Of a DNA stretch of 64,000 nt, positions 2,637 through 55,770 are shown piece by piece. The translations under genes and the position numbers were made by a program. The notes under the pieces were generated by a model. That model saw nothing but the letters and a program-made list of their open reading frames with translations. It was not told where the DNA came from and did no database searches. The stretch's first letter is position 1. The number at the start of each line of letters is the position of its first letter. Origin of the DNA: an uncultured Candidatus Saccharibacteria bacterium (GTDB taxonomy: Bacteria > Patescibacteriota > Doudnabacteria > UBA920); NCBI GenBank assembly GCA_964436545.1, contig CAYTCJ010000003.1, positions 3,168 to 67,167 of the forward strand, in the 5' to 3' direction.

Positions 2637-3566
2637 ATGCGAGAACGACTTACCATTACTTTAAAACAAGACTTGTTAGAGGCTTTAGATGCCAATATTG
2701 ATGGCGATAAACTTAGAAACAGAAGTCATGCCATTGAATATTATTTGTCTAAAAGTTTAGGGCAAAAAGCTCTTAAAGTGTTAATTTTAGCCGGAGGCAA
2801 ACCGGTAGATTTTGGTAAAGCTCATGGCGGAAAATTACCCAAGGCAATGGTAAAAATTGCGGGTAAGCCACTCTTAGAACAAACTTTGCTAAAATTAAAA
2901 TCTGCCAAATTTAAAGATATCATTATTTCTCTGGGTGAAGGGGGTAAAACTATTAGAGACTATTTTAAAACCGGCGAAGCTTTAGGTTTGCATATTCAAT
3001 ATATTGAACAAGACAAGAGTGTTACCGGGCCGGCCAGCGCCCTCCTTCAGGCAAAAAAATGGGTAGACAATAGTAATTTTTTGTTAATTTATGGAGATGT
3101 GCTTTCGGATATAGATTTTTCTGATTTAATCCAATTCCATTCTTTAAACAAACCCTCCATTTGCACTATGACTTTAACTTCCACTGAAAGCATTGGGCTT
3201 TGGGGTTTGGCCAAACTGCAGGGCAGTCGGGTGGTGGAATTTGAAGAAAAACCGCAAAATCCTAAAACTTTTTCTCGGCTCATTAACGCCGGTATATATT
3301 TAATGGAACCGGGAATTTTTAAATACATTTCACCCCCTCCCAGCCTCCCCCCTCCCTCCTACGCCAAGGCTTCGGAGGACAGCCAAGGGGGAGGAATAAA
3401 GGTGGGGGGAAGTAAATTAGAAAGTGGAATTTTGCCTCGGCTCGCGGAAGAAGGAAAGTTATATGGGTATGTGTATGAAGGTTTATGGTTAGATATTAGT
3501 AATAGCGCAGTGTATAAACAAGCCATAAAAGAAATGAACAAGAATGACAAAAATGAACAAGAATGA
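2637..3566 (+). CDS. Ribbon-helix-helix (CopG-like) DNA-binding domain fused to NDP-sugar pyrophosphorylase (mannose-1-P guanylyl / glucose-1-P thymidylyltransferase-like)
   Basis: The N-terminus MRERLTITLKQDLLEALDANIDGDKLRNRSHAIEYYL has a strand-helix-helix RHH pattern. It is followed by LILAGGKPVDFG...GKPLLEQTL, the G-rich NTP-transferase signature loop. The gene also contains an in-frame GC-rich palindromic insert (see 3333-3410). Confidence 0.7.
   Translation: MRERLTITLKQDLLEALDANIDGDKLRNRSHAIEYYLSKSLGQKALKVLILAGGKPVDFGKAHGGKLPKAMVKIAGKPLLEQTLLKLKSAKFKDIIISLGEGGKTIRDYFKTGEALGLHIQYIEQDKSVTGPASALLQAKKWVDNSNFLLIYGDVLSDIDFSDLIQFHSLNKPSICTMTLTSTESIGLWGLAKLQGSRVVEFEEKPQNPKTFSRLINAGIYLMEPGIFKYISPPPSLPPPSYAKASEDSQGGGIKVGGSKLESGILPRLAEEGKLYGYVYEGLWLDISNSAVYKQAIKEMNKNDKNEQE
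3333..3410. repeat. GC-rich palindromic element inserted in frame in the nucleotidyltransferase gene
   Basis: Sequence ccccctcccagcctcccccctccctcc...ggaggacagccaagggggagg...ggtgggggg has C-run and G-run inverted symmetry. It encodes a Pro/Gly-rich stretch (ISPPPSLPPPSYAKASEDSQGGGIKVGG) that interrupts an otherwise ordinary low-GC gene. Confidence 0.6.
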
Positions 3567-5652: not shown

Positions 5653-7023
5653 ATGAGGATAATTGCCGACCTCCAAATTCATAGTAAATATTCTCGTGCT
5701 TGTTCCCAAGACCTTAATCCACAAAATATTGGCTTGTGGGCGCAAAAAAAAGGTATTCAGGTTATTGGCACCGGGGATTTTACGCATCCCAAATGGCTTT
5801 TGGAGTTAAAGGAGAATTTGGTAGAAGCAAAACCGGGGTTGTATCGATTGCGATCTAATTCGGGTCATTCAAATACTATTCGTGGATTCGGGTCGGCTCA
5901 TTTTATGCTTACTGCGGAAGTTTCGAGTATTTACAAACAAGGCGACAAAGTAAGGCGGGTGCACAATATGATTCTGGCGCCGAACTTTCAGGCAGTTGAT
6001 AAAATTATTGCCGGCTTAGAAAAGCGAGGAGCTAATTTAAAAAGTGACGGCCGACCGATTATGGGCATTAAGTGTCCGGATTTGGTAAAGCTGGTTAAAG
6101 AGGCCTCCTTAGAAGCGGAAATTATTCCGGCGCATGCTTGGACTCCGCACTTTGGCGTGTTTGGTTCCTTGTCGGGTTTTAATAGCATAGAGGAAGCGTT
6201 TGGTGAGGAGGCAAAACACATTTTTGCCATTGAAACCGGCCTGTCAGCTGACCCAAAAATGAATTGGCAAATTTCATCGCTCGACCAGTATGCTTTGGTG
6301 TCTAACAGCGATGCGCATAGTTTAAGAAAACTGGGGCGGGAGGCCAATGTGTTTGAAATAGAGGAGAAAAAATTATCTTATGCGGAAATAATTCGCGTGA
6401 TTCGGAATAAAGATCCCAAAGAATTTCTTTACACTTTGGAATTTTTTCCCGAGGAAGGCAAATACCATTTAGATGGCCATGCCGATTGCAAATTTTCTTG
6501 TGAACCTTTGAAAACCCAAAAATTAAAAGGGGTTTGTCCGGTGTGTGGAAAAAAATTATTGGTGGGTGTGTTAAGTCGGGTAGAGGCTTTGGCCGATAGA
6601 GCCTATGGGTTTATGCCGAAACGGGCTGTGCCTTTTAAAAATGTAATTCCGTTAGAAGAAATTATTGCCGATGTGCTGGGTGTGGGGGTGGCATCTAAAC
6701 GAGTGGTGGAGATGTATGAGCGAATGGTGAACTCCTCCCGACCTCCTCTTTCGAAAAGAGGAGGGGTATTGCAGTCACCCCCTCTTTCTTTAAAGAGGGG
6801 GGAGGGGGAGTTGTGTGATGAGTTTTCCATTCTTCTCGATTTAACCGAAGCGCAAATTACCGCCATCTCGAATCCAGCCATAGCCCAAGCCATCATCCGC
6901 GTTCGCGAAGGTAAGGTTAAACTAGAAGGTGGGTATGATGGCGTGTTTGGTAAAATTGAAATTTTTAGCCAAGCAGAAAGGGAAAAATTGTTTTTAAAAC
7001 CTAAACAAGTAACTTTATTTTAA
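5653..7023 (+). CDS. PHP-domain nuclease, endonuclease Q-like (TIGR00375-like) with C4 zinc finger
   Basis: The N-terminal IADLQIHSKYS motif is PHP-type. CEPL...CPVCGKK forms a zinc ribbon. The overall length and layout resemble EndoQ. The gene carries an in-frame palindromic insert (6733-6812). Confidence 0.6.
   Translation: MRIIADLQIHSKYSRACSQDLNPQNIGLWAQKKGIQVIGTGDFTHPKWLLELKENLVEAKPGLYRLRSNSGHSNTIRGFGSAHFMLTAEVSSIYKQGDKVRRVHNMILAPNFQAVDKIIAGLEKRGANLKSDGRPIMGIKCPDLVKLVKEASLEAEIIPAHAWTPHFGVFGSLSGFNSIEEAFGEEAKHIFAIETGLSADPKMNWQISSLDQYALVSNSDAHSLRKLGREANVFEIEEKKLSYAEIIRVIRNKDPKEFLYTLEFFPEEGKYHLDGHADCKFSCEPLKTQKLKGVCPVCGKKLLVGVLSRVEALADRAYGFMPKRAVPFKNVIPLEEIIADVLGVGVASKRVVEMYERMVNSSRPPLSKRGGVLQSPPLSLKRGEGELCDEFSILLDLTEAQITAISNPAIAQAIIRVREGKVKLEGGYDGVFGKIEIFSQAEREKLFLKPKQVTLF
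6733..6812. repeat. Tandem pair of GC-rich hairpins inserted in frame in the EndoQ-like gene
   Basis: Two perfect hairpins, cctcctctttcgaaaagaggagg and cccctctttctttaaagagggg(ggaggggg). They encode SSRPPLSKRGGVLQSPPLSLKRGEGEL. Confidence 0.65.
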
Positions 7024-7025
7024 AT

Positions 7026-7769
7026 ATGTTTGGAAAATTGTTTGATAGACTTACTTATTTTGAGCCAACTCGTTTTGAGTTTCTAGATTTAAAACAAGAG
7101 CAAAAAAATCGAGCTCAACATGTTTTGGCTTGGTCAAAAGCAGGTTTGCCTAAAACCGCGTTTGCCTATATGGGAGCGAGTGAGCATACCTTAGAAACTT
7201 ACATTCGCACTGGAAAATTAACGGAGTTTTTTCCAATGGGTGGTGTTCCGATTAATTCTCAAAATGCTCACGCAGAAAGTTTTGGAATTATGAGAGTGAA
7301 TATTTCCCCATATCCTTTAACTGAAAATAGTTTTGAGTTTATTAGAGATAATGATGCAGTTATCTTAGCCCGCAGTCATTTTATTTTGCAAAGTTTAGGT
7401 TTGCCCATAAATCCAGAAACAGTTATGTTGGCTAAAAATTTACCCCTAACACCAGAGGGTGTACTCATTCAGAAAGATTTAGAGACACTCATTGCCATGG
7501 TAGTTGCTAGGGATAGAATTACGGGTGCTGATGCAAGAAATAAAATTTTTGACTTTATGGTTCAAGGACAAGCTTATAAAGGTTATGTGTTAGCTTTAAG
7601 CACCGCAGTAGATAAACCAGAGGTATTATATAGAAATGAAGATCCATATAATGATCAAGTAATTATTTCGCCGGGTTTTGAACAATATATTCTTGGTTTA
7701 GAGGCTTTAGGTGAACATGAAAAAAGTTTTTTAAAAGGTATTGGCAGAGCAACATCCAAAGTCGTTTAA
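7026..7769 (+). CDS. Hypothetical protein, tightly coupled downstream of the EndoQ-like gene
   Basis: 247 aa with a 2-nt gap after the upstream stop. No motif recognised. Confidence 0.5.
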   Translation: MFGKLFDRLTYFEPTRFEFLDLKQEQKNRAQHVLAWSKAGLPKTAFAYMGASEHTLETYIRTGKLTEFFPMGGVPINSQNAHAESFGIMRVNISPYPLTENSFEFIRDNDAVILARSHFILQSLGLPINPETVMLAKNLPLTPEGVLIQKDLETLIAMVVARDRITGADARNKIFDFMVQGQAYKGYVLALSTAVDKPEVLYRNEDPYNDQVIISPGFEQYILGLEALGEHEKSFLKGIGRATSKVV

Positions 7770-7779
7770 TTTATTTGAA

Positions 7780-9057
7780 TTAGTTTATTAGTAATTCCTC
7801 AATCTTCATTAACCGGTTATATTTACACACCCGCTCGCCTCGGGTGGGGCCGACTTTAATCCACTCACTACCCATGGCCACGGCAAGGTCAACTAAGAAA
7901 GTGTCATTGGTTTCGCCCCCGCCTCGGTGGGAGGGAATAGTGATGAAATTATATTTTTTAGCTAAAAGGCAAGCCTCGACGGTTTCACTCACCGTGCCGG
8001 CTTGGTTAAGTTTAATTAAAATCGCATTGGCGCATTTTTCATCTATGGCTTTTTGCCAAAGTTTTGCATTAGTTACGGTTAAGTCATCGGCCACAATTTT
8101 TACTGTGCCCGCTTGGCTCATTAATTTTGGCCAATTGCTCCAGTCAAATTCCGAGAGACCGTCTTCCAAAGCTATAATCGGATATTTACGAAACCAATCC
8201 GCATACATAGCAATTATTTCGTCGGAAGTTAGCAGTTTTTTATCCACTTTTAAACTATATTTATTATCACTCAGGAATTCCGAAGCCGCAGCGTCTATGT
8301 AAATGCCCGCATCTGTGATAGCTTGATAGCCGGCTTGTTCTATGGCCTTAGTAAGAATTTGTAAAGGCAGTTCATTGCTGGTAATTCCGGCCGGCGCAAA
8401 AGCGCCTTCGTTGCCGACGTTGGTGTTAAACCCTTGTTGTTTTAAAAGGGTTTTGGTGGCTTGATAAATTTCTTCCATCATTTGCACGTTGGCCTTAGCA
8501 GATTGGTTTTTATTTACCGCTAAAATATACTCTTGTAAATCGGTAGAATTATCGGCATGTTTACCGCCTTCAATAAACACGGCAAGGGGACGAGGTAAGT
8601 TGTAAGTTGTAAGTTGCCTGTCTGCGGACAAGGCAGGTAAGTTGTAAGTATTAGCTAGATATTCATATAATTCCAAGTTTGCATCAGTGGCAGCAGCGCG
8701 GGCAATGGCCATGGAAACCCCCAAAATGGCATTGGCACCCAAATTACTTTTGTTTTCCGTGCCGTCTGCGTCAATCATAAGCCTATCAATTTCCTGTTGA
8801 GCTTTTGCCTCTTTGCCAATTAGTAGAGGTGCGATTTTTGTATTAACATTTGCCGTGGCCTGAAGCATACCTTTGCCGTTATAGCGTTTCACTTCACTAT
8901 CGAGCAAAACAAAAGCTTCTTTACTGCCTGCCGACTCGCCATAAGACACGCTGGCTGTGCCGACACAATTATTTTCTAAGACAACGTCCACCTCTAAAGA
9001 GGGCGCGCCACCGCTAGCTAAGATTTCTCTTGCAAAAATGTGTTTGATTTTGGTCAT
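7780..9057 (-). CDS. eno: Enolase (phosphopyruvate hydratase)
   Basis: The SHRGGGETNDTF(LV)DLAVA signature and the overall 425-aa alignment pattern match Eno. The gene contains an in-frame repeat insert (8595-8650). Confidence 0.9.
   Translation of the reverse strand: MTKIKHIFAREILASGGAPSLEVDVVLENNCVGTASVSYGESAGSKEAFVLLDSEVKRYNGKGMLQATANVNTKIAPLLIGKEAKAQQEIDRLMIDADGTENKSNLGANAILGVSMAIARAAATDANLELYEYLANTYNLPALSADRQLTTYNLPRPLAVFIEGGKHADNSTDLQEYILAVNKNQSAKANVQMMEEIYQATKTLLKQQGFNTNVGNEGAFAPAGITSNELPLQILTKAIEQAGYQAITDAGIYIDAAASEFLSDNKYSLKVDKKLLTSDEIIAMYADWFRKYPIIALEDGLSEFDWSNWPKLMSQAGTVKIVADDLTVTNAKLWQKAIDEKCANAILIKLNQAGTVSETVEACLLAKKYNFITIPSHRGGGETNDTFLVDLAVAMGSEWIKVGPTRGERVCKYNRLMKIEELLIN
8595..8650. 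repeat. Palindromic unit flanked by GTAAGTTGTAAGT repeats, inserted in frame in eno
   Basis: Plus strand reads gtaagttgtaagttgtaagttg-cctgtctgcggacaaggcagg-taagttgtaagt. On the coding strand it encodes TYNLPALSADRQLTTYNLP, which has a duplicated TYNLP flank. This sits where other enolases have a short loop before the GGxHADN motif. Confidence 0.65.
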
Positions 9058-11229: not shown

Positions 11230-11233
11230 CCAG

Positions 11234-11966
11234 ATGGGCATCTTCAAGGGGATTCCCCTTGAAGATGCCCATCGAGGGAATATGAATCATCGAGATTATA
11301 AACAATTTGCCCCTTTAACCTCCCATCATATTTATAATCGGGGAAATGGAAAGCGAGATATTTTTTTGGATGCGGATGATTATAATTTTTTTCTATATCG
11401 CCTGAAAGAAAATCTTTTTCCCACCTTGAAGATGCCCATCGAGGGGAGTGTATTTAATAATTCGCATACTCCATATAAACGCAAAACCTTGCCTAGCGGA
11501 GCATTTTCTTTATTGGCTTATTGTTTGATGCCAAATCATTTTCATTTACTAATCCAACAGAATTCGTTATTGCCTGTGAGTAAGTTATTAGCCAAAGTTT
11601 GTACAAGTTATAGTAAATATTTTAACAAAAAATATGATAATATTGGTGGAGTCTTTCAAGATCAATTTAAAGCAGTTTTAGTTGTTAGTGATACTCAACT
11701 GCTTTGGCTTTCAGCGTATATTCATCAAAACCCGGTAATAGCAGGAATTATAAAAAAGATAGAGGATTATCAATGGTCTAGTTATTTAGATTTGGTGGGT
11801 TTAAGGCAAGGGAGTCTTTGTGATAAAAGTTTTTTTGTGAAAATGGTTGGTTCTAAAAATTCTTATAAAAAATTTGTTGATGAAAGTTTTGAAAAAATTA
11901 AACAACGGAAGGACATTAAGAATTTACTAATAGAATAGTACCCCCCTTGAAGATGCCCATCAAGGG
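11234..11966 (+). mobile_element. RAYT (REP-associated tyrosine transposase) unit flanked by REP hairpins
   Basis: REP-like hairpins cccTTGAagatgcccatCgAggg occur as an inverted pair at 11234-11273, again at 11425-11447 (inside the gene) and again at 11941-11966. The enclosed CDS has HuH and Tyr motifs. Confidence 0.7.
11283..11938 (+). CDS. IS200/IS605-like Y1 HuH transposase (REP-associated tyrosine transposase)
   Basis: HFHLLI is the HuH motif, and YIHQNPV supplies the downstream catalytic Tyr. The track ORF start at 11234 is encoded by the REP palindrome, so the ATG at 11283 is the more likely start. Confidence 0.7.
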
Positions 11967-12143
11967 TATTTTAAGGTTTAAATGACATTCGTTGAAAATT
12001 AGGTTATAATAGTAGAAATCATTTATCATACAAACCCCATTAGAGAATTATTGGGAGTAAGATATTAATAGGCTTTAGGTTATTGTTTTATTTTTATTTA
12101 CAAAGCTTTATTCTATATTCTCTAACGGGGCAAGTCATACTTT

Positions 12144-14938: not shown

Positions 14939-14945
14939 ACCCACT

Positions 14946-14975
14946 AAAAAACCAATCTGGTAAGATTGGTTTTTT
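14946..14975. terminator. Rho-independent terminator (aaaaaaccaatct-ggta-agattggtttttt)
   Basis: A perfect 13-bp stem flanked by an A-run and a T-run. It could serve both the upstream + gene and the - strand tRNA. Confidence 0.75.
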
Positions 14976-14977
14976 AG

Positions 14978-15067
14978 TGGCGGAGAGAGGGGGATTCGAA
15001 CCCCCGAAGCCTTTTACAGCTTACTCGCTTTCCAAGCGAGCGCACTAGACCACTATGCGATCTCTCC
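14978..15067 (-). tRNA. tRNA-Ser (anticodon GGA)
   Basis: The reverse complement folds as a class II tRNA. It has a 7-bp acceptor stem (ggagaga/tctctcc), the anticodon loop tt-GGA-aa, a long variable arm, a T-arm ggttcgaatcc and a CCA end. Confidence 0.85.
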
Positions 15068-27379: not shown

Positions 27380-27500
27380 AAGCTGATTATAACATACTAA
27401 TTTACTAAAGAATCCGGAATGTTGACGTTAGGTATACTTTACTGGGGTATAAGCTTGATTTTTGTTTTATTTATGTTAAAATATCCAAAGGTATTCGGGA

Positions 27501-27565
27501 GTTCCGCCAGCTGGCGGATCAGCGGTACCTGCCTCTACCTGTCGGCAGACAGGTGCCGGCAGGCA
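27501..27565. repeat. Cluster of GC-rich palindromic units (ccgccagctggcgg; cctgtcggcagacagg; gccggcaggcagg)
   Basis: Perfect short palindromes lie in an otherwise AT-rich intergenic region. The same units recur at 61356-61373, 55731-55750, 45491-45512 and 8617-8635. Confidence 0.65.
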
Positions 27566-27595
27566 GGGAGCAATCGGCTTCAGAATAAAGAAAAT

Positions 27596-27874
27596 ATGTA
27601 TTGTGTTTATGCAATCATTAGCCAAATAAAAAATAGAATTTATGTAGGACTGTCCCACGATCCCTTTAAAAGGCTTACCGAACATAATTTAGGAGAATGT
27701 AAATCCACTAAAGGTTATACACCTTGGAAATTGTTTTTTATCGAAACTGACCATCAATCTTTAAATTCTGCAAGAAATAGTGAAAAGAGATTGAAGAGCG
27801 GTTTTGGTAAAGAATTTTTAAAAACTTTACCGAAAGAAAAAATTTCATATTATTCGGGAGTAGCTCAGCGGTAG
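27596..27874 (+). CDS. GIY-YIG nuclease family protein (small, standalone)
   Basis: MYCVYAII...RIYVGLSHDPFKRLTEHN matches the GIY-YIG core. The 3' end overlaps the tRNA-Asn 5' end, and the track start at 27419 lies in repeat DNA. Confidence 0.6.
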   Translation: MYCVYAIISQIKNRIYVGLSHDPFKRLTEHNLGECKSTKGYTPWKLFFIETDHQSLNSARNSEKRLKSGFGKEFLKTLPKEKISYYSGVAQR

Positions 27875-27928
27875 AGCAATCGGCTGTTAACCGATGGGTC
27901 CTGGGTTCGAATCCCAGCTCCCGAGCCA
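27854..27928 (+). tRNA. tRNA-Asn (anticodon GUU)
   Basis: Acceptor stem tcgggag/ctcccga, D-arm gctcagcggtagagc, anticodon loop ct-GTT-aa, T-arm ctgggttcgaatcccag, discriminator G and an encoded CCA. Confidence 0.85.
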
Positions 27929-27967
27929 CGCTAAGCGTGGCTGTACCCCCGCTTAGCGGGGGAGCCA
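27914..27967. repeat. 54-bp direct repeat copy 1 (tRNA-Asn 3' end + two downstream hairpins); attL-like
   Basis: ccagctcccgagccacgctaagcgtggctgtacccccgcttagcgggggagcca is identical over 54/54 nt to 32357-32410. Confidence 0.8.
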
Positions 27968-32356: not shown

Positions 32357-32410
32357 CCAGCTCCCGAGCCACGCTAAGCGTGGCTGTACCCCCGCTTAGC
32401 GGGGGAGCCA
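32357..32410. repeat. 54-bp direct repeat copy 2 (partial tRNA-Asn 3' end + hairpins); attR-like
   Basis: Identical to 27914-27967, but no full tRNA precedes it. It is preceded by the palindrome gccataaaactttatggc. Confidence 0.8.
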
Positions 32411-45050: not shown

Positions 45051-45254
45051 CGCATTAGTAAGTTTACTAAAGGCGATCTTCGTCATTTTGACAGTTTACC
45101 AATTAAGTGACATATGTCACTTAATTGGTAATGGTAAAAATTATTTTTAGCTGTGGTATAATACAGTTATGCTAAATATCCAAGAAATAAAAAAAAATTT
45201 ACCCCGTTAGAGAAATGAAATTTCGTTTTCTTATTCGGGTGAAAGGTTAGTTAA

Positions 45255-47081
45255 ATGCTTAATGATAATTTATCAGCATTACATTCTCTAATGGGGTTTG
45301 AGGGGGAAGTAGACAACAGTGAAGATACTTTAATCAAATACAGTCATGATGCCAGCATTTTTGAAGTGAGGCCCATGGGTGTGGTGCATCCGAAAAATAG
45401 TGAAGATGTAAAGAATGTGGTGAAGTGGGTGGTAAGCCAAAGGCAAGATAGTTTAACTTTGAATACAGATGACTCAGAGCGTCATCCTGAACCTGCCTTG
45501 TCGTCAGGCAGGCTTGTTTCAGGATCCCATATAAATGGATTCCGAAATAAATTCGGAATGACAAATGGAGATAAAGCTTCTGTAAATAAAGGGGGGGAGT
45601 TATCTATTACAGCTCGGAGTGCCGGCACAGATATGTCGGGCGGGCCACTTAATACTGGAATAATTGCCGACTTTACCACGCATTTTAATAAAATTTTAAA
45701 CTTTGGGCCGAATTTTGTAGAAGTAGAGCCGGGGGTATATTACCGCGACTTTGAAGTAGAAACTTTAAAACGCGGACTACTTTTGCCATGTTATACGGCT
45801 TCCAAAATGCTGAATACCGTGGGCGGAATGGTGGGCAACAATAGCGCGGGTGAAAAAACTTTGGCGTATGGGCAAACTAAAGATTTTGTAGAAGAATTAA
45901 GCGTGGTATTGAGTGATGGAAATGAATATCAATTTAGTGAATTGGAAAGTAGAGAATTAGAGAGTAAACTAAAACTCCCGAATTTTGAAGGTGATATTTA
46001 CCGAAAAATCTATCAGCTCATTAAAGATAATCGCGATTTAATTCAAAACGCCAAACCCAAAACCAGTAAAAATTCCGCCGGATATTTACTGTGGGAAGTA
46101 TGGGATGGTATAAAATTTAATTTAGCCAAATTAATTGTAGGCAGTCAGGGGACATTGGGCCTTGTTACGAAAATTCGGTTTCGGCTGGTAGAGCCTAAGC
46201 CTAAGTCTGCTTTGCTGGTGATGTTTTTAAAAGACTTGAATAATTTGGGAGAAATTGTGGCAGATGTGGTAGAACATAAGCCGGAAAGTTTTGAAAGTTA
46301 TGATGATAAAACTTTAAAACTGGCCATAAAGTTTTTGCCCGCCATGGTAAAGAAGATGTCCAAAACCGCTGGGTCGGCTTTTGGTGGCATTCTAAACATG
46401 TTAAGTTTGGGTTGGCAGTTTATGCCCGAAGCGGTTATGACTTTAACTGGCGGAATGCCTAAGCTGGTATTAATTTGTGAGTTTACCGGCACGAGCCAAG
46501 AAGCAGTAAATGAAAAAGCCAGTTTACTCCAGCGGGAAGTGGAAGGGAAATTTCATATCCAAACTCGGATTTGTCAAAATAAACAAGAAGTGGAAAAATA
46601 TTGGACCATAAGGCGGGAGTCGTTTTCTCTTTTACGGGAGCGCATTAAAGACCGGCACACCGCCCCCTTCATAGATGACATTGCGGTCCTGCCCAAAGAT
46701 ATGCCAGCATTTTTACCGCGGTTAAATAAAATTTTGGAAAAATATCAGGACAAAATTATTTACACCATTGCCGGACATGCGGGGAATGGCAATTTTCACA
46801 TCATTCCCTTAATGAATTTGGCGGACGAAAACCAGCGCGCGATAATTCCTCAACTTTCCGAAGAAGTTTATAGTTTGGTTTTGGAATTTCATGGGACAAT
46901 TACGGCAGAGCATAACGACGGACTGATTCGCACCCCTTTTTTACAAAAAATGTATGGGAAAGAGGTAATAGGTTTGTTTGAAGCAGTAAAAAATATTTTT
47001 GATCCGCACAATATTTTTAACCCCGGCAAAAAAGTTCACGGGGATTTGGGGTATGCGATGGAGCATATTAAAAGAAGTTAG
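45255..47081 (+). CDS. FAD-linked oxidase (GlcD / D-lactate dehydrogenase-like, PCMH-type FAD-binding)
   Basis: ARSAGTDMSGGPLN and an N-terminal FAD-binding-4 pattern. The C-terminal domain ends NIFNPGK. Carries an in-frame ~80-nt palindromic insert (see 45480-45562). Confidence 0.75.
   Translation: MLNDNLSALHSLMGFEGEVDNSEDTLIKYSHDASIFEVRPMGVVHPKNSEDVKNVVKWVVSQRQDSLTLNTDDSERHPEPALSSGRLVSGSHINGFRNKFGMTNGDKASVNKGGELSITARSAGTDMSGGPLNTGIIADFTTHFNKILNFGPNFVEVEPGVYYRDFEVETLKRGLLLPCYTASKMLNTVGGMVGNNSAGEKTLAYGQTKDFVEELSVVLSDGNEYQFSELESRELESKLKLPNFEGDIYRKIYQLIKDNRDLIQNAKPKTSKNSAGYLLWEVWDGIKFNLAKLIVGSQGTLGLVTKIRFRLVEPKPKSALLVMFLKDLNNLGEIVADVVEHKPESFESYDDKTLKLAIKFLPAMVKKMSKTAGSAFGGILNMLSLGWQFMPEAVMTLTGGMPKLVLICEFTGTSQEAVNEKASLLQREVEGKFHIQTRICQNKQEVEKYWTIRRESFSLLRERIKDRHTAPFIDDIAVLPKDMPAFLPRLNKILEKYQDKIIYTIAGHAGNGNFHIIPLMNLADENQRAIIPQLSEEVYSLVLEFHGTITAEHNDGLIRTPFLQKMYGKEVIGLFEAVKNIFDPHNIFNPGKKVHGDLGYAMEHIKRS
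45480..45562. repeat. Compound palindromic element inserted in frame in the FAD-oxidase gene
   Basis: atcctgaa-cctgccttgtcgtcaggcagg-cttgtttcaggat followed by attccgaaataaattcggaat-gaca. It encodes ERHPEPALSSGRLVSGSHINGFRNKFGMTNG between the conserved FAD-binding segments. Confidence 0.65.
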
Positions 47082-47121: not shown

Positions 47122-47613
47122 TTAGTAGTTAGAAAATAAATGAAATTGCCGGACCGAGCGCCCCGTGGGGGGCGAAGGTCCGGCTTTGCGTTGCGCGCTG
47201 TCTTTTTTTGCCGGAGGGCGCGCCACCTCCAGCAAAACCGATTTGAACTCTTCTACTGCCTTTTGGGCAGCCGGGACACGTGCCCCTTCCAAAATGAGCT
47301 CAAGCTGATAAACAGCACGAGCTCCGTCCGGCCGGAGTTCAATCCGGAATCGTCGTTTTTTAACTTCCACGACATGGACGGTTATGCTCAGAGCCTTGCC
47401 CGATTCAACATCGGGATTTGACTTGAGCCATGGAACCAAGGTTTCCGACACCGCGCCGTAAAGGACGCGGTAGTCCTCGCCGGCTTCGTCCGGCGGAACT
47501 TTAGGCAGGAGTTCAACCTGCCGGTCGGTCGCCCCCTCAAGAGAGGGTATAAAATAGCAAGAAATAAAAAAAAGACCCACCCTCAATAATATCACCAAAA
47601 ATTTCCTCATCAT
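47122..47613 (-). CDS. Secreted hypothetical protein, high-GC body with AT-rich signal-peptide region
   Basis: 163 aa. The signal peptide is encoded at low GC and the body at about 60% GC. Low-complexity AATCAG/CAGTAG repeats flank it (47085-47135, 47950-48035). Confidence 0.45.
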   Translation of the reverse strand: MMRKFLVILLRVGLFFISCYFIPSLEGATDRQVELLPKVPPDEAGEDYRVLYGAVSETLVPWLKSNPDVESGKALSITVHVVEVKKRRFRIELRPDGARAVYQLELILEGARVPAAQKAVEEFKSVLLEVARPPAKKDSAQRKAGPSPPTGRSVRQFHLFSNY

Positions 47614-48042
47614 TCTCTCCTTTTAGGAAGTTCGCGTCCGTTTTGCCTCTGTGGCCAAGAACGCTTAAAAGAGAGTATAAAAGAAAAATTAAAAAATGAC
47701 AAAAAATAAAAAAATCGCGCTTTGGACAATTACCAAAGGCGATTTGGACTAATTAAAATTAGTCCTCCTATTTTATCCGGCTCCCTCAGGCGAAGGAAAT
47801 GCTAAAACCCACCCTTGGGAGCCGGAACCCTGTTCAGCAAAAGTAGAACAGGGCCACAATTAATTGATAGTATAAAGCTGGTTTGCGATTAAAGCAAGGC
47901 GCTGGTTTTTTATTGGCAGATAGTGGTATAATTGTTAGGTTATTGATTGTAGGTGATAAGTCGGTCAGCAGACAGAAATTAGCTAATCAGCTGACAGCTA
48001 ATCAGCAGTCAGCTGATCAGCAAGTAAGTTGAAGAAAATTAT

Positions 48043-55710: not shown

Positions 55711-55770
55711 GTCCCGCAAAGCGGGATCCCTGCCTTGTCGGCAGACAGGCGCCTTTGGCGGAAATTATGA
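55711..55770. repeat. Three-unit palindromic element: gtcccgcaaagcgggat + cctgccttgtcggcagacagg + gcctttggcggaaattatgaa
   Basis: A longer form of the 39141-39180 element. Its middle unit equals the eno and FAD-oxidase insert cores. AGAGAATAG tandem repeats follow it. Confidence 0.7.

Follow-up and report, generated by a model that had tools for sequence, protein, structure and literature searches.

Palindromic Repeats within Coding Sequences

The Rickettsia palindromic elements (RPEs) are dispersed palindromic repeats of small genomes, many of which lie in frame in functional housekeeping genes and encode a peptide that is compatible with the fold of the host protein (PMC10969869; PMC3733652). 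Another example is provided by the intragenic repetitive extragenic palindromes (REPs) of the GTAG/CGTC type (Di Nocera et al. 2013), which are short and often paired; some of them lie wholly within open reading frames (ORFs), notably those of replication and repair genes, where they encode 20–30 amino acids, and they have been hypothesised to be moved by the REP-associated tyrosine transposases or RAYTs (PMC3733652). According to one source (PMC4478555, citing Paquin et al. 2000), the GC clusters of yeast mitochondria, mostly intergenic, and the double-hairpin elements of Allomyces are G+C-rich hairpins in compact A+T-rich genomes. Here we analyse a stretch of 64,000 nt (the window; contig CAYTCJ010000003.1) from a tiny groundwater bacterium of the Patescibacteria, in which the gene for an endonuclease Q (EndoQ) family protein holds an in-frame element of 83 nt made of two hairpins. 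The genomes of the Patescibacteria, or Candidate Phyla Radiation (CPR), measure about 1 Mb and are almost entirely coding. The element is probably a dispersed, mobile and non-autonomous palindromic element that is tolerated in a linker of EndoQ predicted to be disordered.

An In-Frame Twin-Hairpin Element in an EndoQ Gene

The host gene (5653–7023, plus strand, 456 aa) belongs by its sequence to the EndoQ family, the enzymatic activity being predicted. The family model TIGR00375 matches the ORF with an E value of 2.9e-41; the score of 142 bits falls short of the curated equivalog cut-off, 326.6, and the match stops at residue 360, where the insert starts. The Pyrococcus furiosus enzyme (PfuEndoQ, PDB 5ZB8) aligns with residues 3–359 and 386–441 of the window protein (E 1.5e-40), and the structures 5ZB8 and 7K30 are both matched at about 1e-40, over the catalytic PHP-like and Zn-finger regions. 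Candidatus Doudnabacteria and other Patescibacteria supply the nearest proteins, which reach 90% identity, and close homologs in Candidatus Doudnabacteria carry the name endonuclease Q family protein.

The complete element occupies positions 6730–6812 of the plus strand and encodes NSSRPPLSKRGGVLQSPPLSLKRGEGEL, with peptide stretches that include PPLSKRGG / PPLSLKRGEGEL. Its left terminal inverted repeat, AACTCCTCCC (6730–6739, plus strand), pairs in both the DNA and the RNA fold with the right one, GGGGGAGTT (6804–6812, plus strand). Enclosed by them on the same strand are hairpin 1 (6742–6764), CCTCCTCTTT-cga-AAAGAGGAGG, and hairpin 2 (6778–6801), CCCCCTCTTT-cttt-AAAGAGGGGG, each with a perfect stem of 10 bp, and between the two hairpins runs the spacer GGTATTGCAGTCA (6765–6777), which is unpaired in the DNA fold. 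The first-pass annotation had reported two perfect in-frame hairpins in an EndoQ-like gene, and the sequence reads as it claimed; since both hairpins are enclosed by pairing inverted repeats, we take them to be parts of a single 83-nt element and not two independent hairpins. The imperfect inverted repeats of 9–10 nt form the outer stem, and are terminal repeats of the kind by which MITEs, or miniature inverted-repeat transposable elements, are recognised.

Folded as single-stranded DNA, the 89 nt from 6727 to 6815 give the outer stem plus both hairpins at -25.2 kcal/mol (z = -5.9 for the three-way fold; 0 of 200 shuffles as good), and the RNA fold of the same stretch reaches -48.1 kcal/mol (z = -4.8). 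Two matches to CCTCTTT-N2-8-AAAGAGG are present in the window, and 100 shuffles contained none. The sharp break in composition that had also been proposed is there in direction and mild in size, with a G+C content of 0.54 in the element against 0.43 in the remainder of the gene and 0.41 in the window. No known structured RNA family accounts for the element: a scan of the window with Rfam 15 returned only tRNAs above the gathering threshold, and at a relaxed threshold chance hairpin-like miRNA models far under their cut-offs, none of which fits it. The idea that the pyrimidine and purine arms leave every frame free of stop codons by design found no support either, as the mean number of open frames out of six is 2.6 in complete elements, 2.2 in random segments of the window and 2.8 in shuffled elements.

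Recurrent Gain and Replacement at the EndoQ Linker

The window was compared with 56 orthologous loci from species-representative genomes (numbered with the prefix L where they must be told apart), and in 53 of them the stretch enclosed by a pair of flanking anchors, each located independently, was measured. This segment has 102 nt in the window, 24–27 nt in 32 of the 53 loci and 48–159 nt in the other 21. The short class takes in every distant relative (43–52% identity; Terrybacteria, Buchananbacteria and others), and the insert maps between residues 330 and 332 of PfuEndoQ (5ZB8), which has no residues there. The alignment of orthologs therefore shows the segment to be an insert, absent from distant orthologs and from PfuEndoQ. 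The outcome that would have spoken against inserted palindromic DNA, namely a Pro/Gly-rich segment conserved in distant homologs without nucleotide palindromy, was not found, since those homologs have no such segment at all. Each of the 54 segments (53 loci and the window) is open and has a length divisible by three, which argues that the inserts are translated and not removed from the transcript, and on the same grounds an intron or other intervening sequence was discarded.

The same codon position has received very different DNA. Among the 120 closest proteins, at least ten unrelated insert sequences are found there. In many of them the insert DNA folds by a recurrent design, an outer stem around one to five inner hairpins (five in L005), and further families are shared by L009 and L037 and by L011 and L025; other inserts are non-palindromic or tandem duplications, as in L027. 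At this site the window element recurs with the same termini: L044, L178, L002 and L180 carry it as a twin, and L001, L041 and L181 as a single hairpin. Its layout is seen again in L096, L171 and others. A second hypervariable loop of the same protein, near residue 70 (EndoQ site 1), has in the window a 9-aa insert, GHSNTIRGF (5863–5889, plus strand), relative to most orthologs; it is non-palindromic and gives no fold signal, although in other lineages this loop holds palindromic elements, that of L054 being a complete element of the AACTCC type.

The structural context is consistent with tolerance. The insert lies in the short linker that joins the Zn-finger and catalytic part of EndoQ to the C-terminal helical domain. 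In an AlphaFold2 model built on a 55-sequence alignment (mean predicted local distance difference test score, pLDDT, 78.9; predicted template modelling score 0.83), residues 361–386 are modelled as coil between helices 349–359 and 390–395, with pLDDT below 50 at 369–381, and the site-1 loop is likewise of low confidence. The prediction fits a Pro/Gly/Arg-rich insert that forms a disordered loop in a permissive surface linker.

Turnover is fast between close relatives. In L177, the flanking gene is 93% identical to that of the window (86% at third codon positions), homology ends exactly at 6729/6730, and a different insert of 45 nt follows the break, itself a dispersed repeat. L041, 92% identical, has a version with one hairpin, in which the inner hairpin differs from that of the window and the frame is another, and L054, from the same genome as L041, differs from the window at the loop of a nucleotidyltransferase described below and at EndoQ site 1. 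The reverse is found in L044 and L178. There, the flanking gene is 70–72% identical and its third positions 42–47%, which is effectively saturated, and the element is 89–93% identical, with hairpin 2 and the right end unchanged and the spacer as the most variable part among the three. The peak of identity is limited to about 6697–6830, and recombination of long tracts was for this reason rejected as the source of the high element identity. At least three junctions of this family fall within two codons (GTN|AAC; GTTTCT|AAC; GTTTAT|AAC or GTTAGT|AAC), and in a neighbour-joining tree, to be taken as a rough guide, insert types are scattered among close relatives. These comparisons and junctions point to repeated gain and replacement in the loop and not to a single old insertion inherited vertically. 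The EndoQ linker is thus a site of recurrent gain and replacement, and not an old conserved feature.

The same comparisons bear on two other explanations. An artefact of assembly or amplification that produces small inverted repeats could be imagined for a metagenome-type genome, but it is extremely improbable when the same twin element stands at the same codon in independent assemblies (L044, NCBI JBBTRN01; L178, Logan SRR12901044; and the window) and the reading frame is always kept. The second explanation is a nucleic-acid signal selected by the host, in which an mRNA structure of roughly -48 kcal/mol, placed where two domains meet, would make ribosomes pause or would govern the processing or stability of the message; the sequence would then owe its retention to this function and not to selfishness. 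The stems are perfect and covarying, the element is far more conserved than the synonymous sites of its host, its position is exactly at the domain junction, and the right arms resemble a Shine-Dalgarno sequence (GAGGAGG), the intergenic copies often abutting an ATG. Against this reading, the element is missing from half of the orthologs, including all distant ones; relatives 92–93% identical hold another insert or another version; the codon position is taken elsewhere by unrelated sequences, in part without palindromy; and the same element is found in unrelated genes and spacers. We therefore consider a host-selected signal unlikely.

A Family Dispersed across the Patescibacteria

Outside EndoQ, metagenomes were scanned with the left end only (AACTCCYCCC-N1-4-CCYCCYCTT), which gave at least 129 matches. 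A right arm lies within 22 nt in 57 of the 129 left-end matches listed, and 55 of these 57 right arms complement both variable positions of the left arm, in four pair combinations. Complete elements with the same ends, of 39–56 nt when single and 73–102 nt when twin, occur in many Patescibacteria contigs. In 21 complete copies the ends read AACYCCYCCC and GGGRGRGTT, preceded by T in 16 and followed by A in 18, and the hairpin stems are of one type, with a pyrimidine arm followed by a purine arm (CCYCCTCTT...AAGAGGRGG). Among the matches listed, spacers and short ORFs hold the majority of the metagenomic copies, and 11 of the 57 are well within ORFs of at least 150 aa. The in-frame hosts comprise a transketolase, a DinG-like helicase, a hydrogenase subunit, MiaA, RluD, TatD and DnaE, names read from the ORF sequences and backed by a protein search for TatD, the host organism of which was placed in Portnoybacteria/Parcubacteria. 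The copies in other genes differ in reading frame and lie on either strand, and there are intergenic copies too. In Doudnabacteria, the same repeat families are also present in other genes and spacers, and perfect C-rich hairpins in 950 kb of their DNA have the pyrimidine arm first in 30 cases and the purine arm first in one, a bias of arm order which argues that the palindromy is not random. Within long ORFs lie 22 of these 30 hairpins, 13 of them in EndoQ (a tally from coordinates). Local comparison of the metagenome loci with those of Doudnabacteria gave identities of only 27–53%. By its ends and stems, the element is a member of a repeat family dispersed across the Patescibacteria. The family is apparently undescribed, as a full-text literature search, incomplete in its coverage and thus no proof of novelty, turned up no account of palindromic elements lying in frame in Patescibacteria or CPR.

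What is conserved in these alignments is nucleotide sequence and pairing, and not a peptide. Selection for a flexible Pro/Gly-rich linker or a PPLxxRGG motif, with palindromy as an incidental property, might be suggested by the recurrence of PPLxxRGG-like peptides in homologs of both EndoQ and TatD, in the same frame and within N-S-P...G-E-L. In 120 TatD homologs, one loop mixes empty sites with diverse inserts, including NSPxPPLNLRGGxGEL in the frame used in EndoQ. However, PPL and RGG simply come from reading both arms of the palindrome in a single frame; copies in another frame or on the other strand give LTPPNPLFKKEG, ELPPTPSLEKRGS and SPSLSKEEVGG, many copies are intergenic, third codon positions are conserved along with the pairing, and the loop is predicted to be disordered. 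Adaptation at the protein level is on this evidence highly improbable.

An origin on site, by template switching during replication or hairpin-primed repair at a fragile position and with no mobile family involved, is a further explanation. It would explain the perfect stems and the nested designs, with one outer stem and up to five inner hairpins in L005, as well as the inserts that are tandem duplications (L027), the absence of a target duplication, and the GGAGTT of the empty site, identical to the element's right end. It does not explain why the same sequence of 40–100 nt, with the same ends, is found in unrelated genes and spacers across classes of Patescibacteria, nor an element identity of 89–93% between hosts with saturated synonymous sites, and a specific sequence family is indicated by the 30:1 bias in arm order. 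An on-site origin is for these reasons very unlikely.

Mobility and Targeting of the Element

These rival explanations are weaker than that of a mobile element. The element consists of the ends AACTCCYCCC and GGGGGAGTT, usually flanked by T and A, around one or two hairpins, and would spread as DNA, through a hairpin or cruciform form or by copies recombining with one another. With hardly any intergenic space in these genomes, the surviving copies would be those that are in frame and in permissive surface loops. The EndoQ loop itself has repeatedly been refilled in related lineages, and with elements of different repeat families.

Several observations weigh against mobility. The element has no linked transposase: the RAYTs of the window, L003 and L060 are each flanked by repeats of their own, different from it, and a RAYT is found in only one of 120 element-bearing metagenome loci. 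A link to the RAYT of the window was thus rejected on these data, its flanking repeat being different and confined to the RAYT locus. In the 21 complete copies there is no consistent target-site duplication beyond the T...A edges, which are compatible with TA; the possible duplications TAAGG (L054) and AAGGYT (L067) are isolated and do not generalise, and the 21-nt insert of the enolase gene (see below) has none either. In EndoQ, the net gain is 78 nt for an element of 83 nt, and ancestral linker codons (AKYP) have been replaced, which means either that the element did not simply cut in or that the site was adjusted later. Among the loci compared, no close relative has an empty site for this element, and the complete copies of the sampled loci are concentrated in EndoQ itself. 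Finally, near-perfect stems and high conservation would also fit selection for structure.

A more speculative proposal, possible but on balance doubtful, is that the elements are directed to a few codon positions (the EndoQ linker, EndoQ site 1, the TatD loop and the loop of the nucleotidyltransferase) by a homing-like or other targeting process. The agent might be a single-stranded DNA enzyme that recognises hairpin-prone sites, or short-tract recombination that moves filled alleles across lineages. Targeting would explain why an element that is 90% identical sits at the same codon in hosts saturated at synonymous sites, why hosts that are 93% identical differ at that codon, and why unrelated repeat families use the same positions. 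It is in this apparent specificity of site that greater novelty might lie.

If small selfish hairpin elements do persist mainly as in-frame protein loops, mobile DNA would directly reshape conserved enzymes across a very large share of bacterial diversity. This would give a concrete cause for the length variation and the low-complexity Pro/Gly segments of CPR proteins, which should then not be taken as functional motifs. The hot spots would be a natural map of insertion-tolerant sites in enzymes such as EndoQ, TatD and enolase, of use in protein engineering, and the fast gain and replacement between near-identical strains could provide markers for strain tracking. The transposition or recombination activity behind the family may remain to be found.

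Comparison with Described Systems

Like the RPEs, the EndoQ element is dispersed, palindromic and in frame in functional ORFs of a small genome. It is not filed as an RPE, from which it is set apart by size and host: RPEs are of about 100–150 bp, occur in Rickettsia only and have their own consensus sequences, whereas the EndoQ element measures 39–102 nt, occurs in Patescibacteria, has C-rich/G-rich homopyrimidine/homopurine stems within a 9–10 nt inverted repeat, and is recurrently replaced at one codon. With the GTAG/CGTC REPs it shares short palindromic units that occur in pairs within an ORF. Its hairpins, however, stand in direct order inside an outer stem and are not inverted REP dimers, and a GTAG or CGTC tag, which in those families marks one end of a palindrome of 20–40 nt, is absent both from the ends of the 21 complete copies and from the two hairpins of the window, which places the element outside those families.

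The comparison with REPs, REPINs and their RAYTs can be made within the window itself (11233–11965). In both cases there are hairpin repeats, a Y1 (HUH) transposase is encoded in the genome, and one REP is in frame in a gene. The hairpin of the enolase gene, from a second family, inserted without duplicating its target, and a consistent duplication is likewise missing at the edges of the EndoQ element; insertion without target duplication is typical of single-strand Y1 transposition. Unlike a REP, the EndoQ element does not flank the RAYTs of the window, L003 and L060 in inverted orientation, and the REP of the window RAYT is different.

MITEs with TA target sites, such as the Correia elements of Neisseria and those derived from IS630, resemble the element in their terminal inverted repeats, small size, lack of coding capacity of their own and T...A edges. 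Nevertheless, it is below the typical MITE size of 70–300 bp and shows no longer target duplication among the 21 copies; a parent insertion sequence sharing its ends was not found either, no search for longer elements with those ends having been made, and the reading of TA as a target is ambiguous because the T and the A merely extend the palindrome. It is not a demonstrated MITE. The GC clusters and Allomyces elements (PMC4478555) share with the EndoQ element stems that exceed synonymous-site conservation, turnover of presence and absence in close strains and the merging of hairpin modules, but they are organellar and different in sequence, so that the resemblance is in behaviour only.

Other Palindromic Inserts in the Window

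The first-pass annotation had counted at least five genes with in-frame palindromic inserts in the 64 kb, and that number holds: EndoQ, the nucleotidyltransferase, enolase, the FAD-linked oxidase (a putative insert), the RAYT and a GIY-YIG ORF. Alignments of syntenic orthologs confirm lineage-specific inserts in three of the genes, namely the nucleotidyltransferase, EndoQ (at both sites) and enolase. By sequence comparison, the inserts of the window fall into at least three unrelated families.

In the nucleotidyltransferase gene (2637–3566), an in-frame C-run/G-run insert (3345–3413, plus strand) is absent from 21 of the 23 aligned orthologs, the other two having different inserts. A palindrome comparable to that of EndoQ had been claimed here; the lineage-specific insert is real, but its palindrome is degenerate (fold z = -0.76). 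As this insert and the left end of the L002 element both contain CCCCTCCCAGCCTCCCC, it is probably a decayed relative of the EndoQ element family.

The cleanest insertion event of the window is that of the enolase gene (7780–9057), where a 21-nt hairpin of the second family (8617–8637, minus strand) forms a filled/empty pair with L177. Against this 90%-identical relative there is exactly one gap of 21 nt, after 60 identical bases and without target duplication. The hairpin sits inside a tandem heptamer, (ACTTACA)n, 3' of TTAC; the repeat runs through 8595–8660 of the minus strand within the coding sequence and encodes TYNL...TYNL. The second family has the consensus CCTGCCTTGTCsGCAGACAGGC, for which a pattern search gave 8 hits against 0.17 expected. 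Further members found by the search are an in-frame palindrome in the GIY-YIG ORF (27419–27874) at 27528–27567 (plus strand), an in-frame hairpin enclosed by an outer stem, ATCCTGAA/TTCAGGAT, in the FAD-linked oxidase gene (45255–47081) at 45484–45522 (plus strand), which is the putative insert, and an intergenic copy at 55730–55752 (plus strand).

The third set belongs to the RAYT-like Y1 transposase gene (11234–11938; PF01797, E 1.6e-9), which together with four copies of its own REP, CTTGAAGATGCCCATC, spans 11233–11965 of the plus strand. The copies comprise a perfect inverted pair of 41 nt across the start codon (11233–11273), one in-frame copy (given as 11425–11440 and as 11421–11446) and one after the stop codon (11946–11961). 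This REP, CCCCTTGAAGATGCCCATCGAGGGG, is unrelated in sequence to the EndoQ element and was seen only beside the window RAYT, being absent from the other loci. In L003, an ortholog 54% identical to the window RAYT lies directly downstream of EndoQ (11296–12000) and has its own REP pair, CAAGGGTCATCCTTGCAATTTGCAAGGATGACCCTTG.

Further Features of the Window

The interval between EndoQ and enolase is a variable gene slot. The two genes are adjacent in L177, about 70 nt apart, L041 has a different stretch of roughly 690 nt, and L003 has the RAYT gene. In the window, the slot holds an ORF of 247 aa (7026–7769) that matches nothing in Pfam or NCBIfam and lacks an ortholog in the 56 related loci.

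Two other palindromes of the window were noted. The intergenic one at 47982–48021, GCTAATCAGCTGAC...GTCAGCTGATCAGC, has a translation similar to the 'KQISKSADKQ'-type inserts found at the EndoQ hot spot of other lineages, and may represent a fourth repeat family. The other (45096–45131) has a perfect 17-bp stem, TTACCAATTAAGTGACA-ta-TGTCACTTAATTGGTAA, is A+T-rich and unlike the other families, and stands upstream of the FAD-linked oxidase gene, where it could be an operator-type site.

A perfect direct repeat of 54 nt (27914–27967 and 32357–32410) brackets about 4.4 kb of ORFs, among them that of an N-acetylmuramoyl-L-alanine amidase. Its first copy covers the 3' end of a tRNA-Asn (27854–27928), and the repeat contains two adjacent hairpins, GCCACGCTAAGCGTGGC and CCCCCGCTTAGCGGGGG. 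The repeats look like the attachment sites of a tRNA-integrated element.

The gene of a class I/II aminotransferase (1282–2466) has a G+C content of 0.63 (locally up to 0.8) against 0.41 for the genome, and an ortholog in seven related loci; its horizontal acquisition is possible, and a long antisense ORF (1342–2514) is probably a by-product of the high G+C content. On the minus strand, an ORF of 163 aa (47122–47613; G+C 0.53) without Pfam match contains a strong G+C-rich hairpin (47148–47184). Finally, a terminator-like hairpin with a perfect 18-bp stem (14941–14980) overlaps by 3 nt the end of a tRNA-Ser (GGA) gene on the opposite strand (14978–15067).

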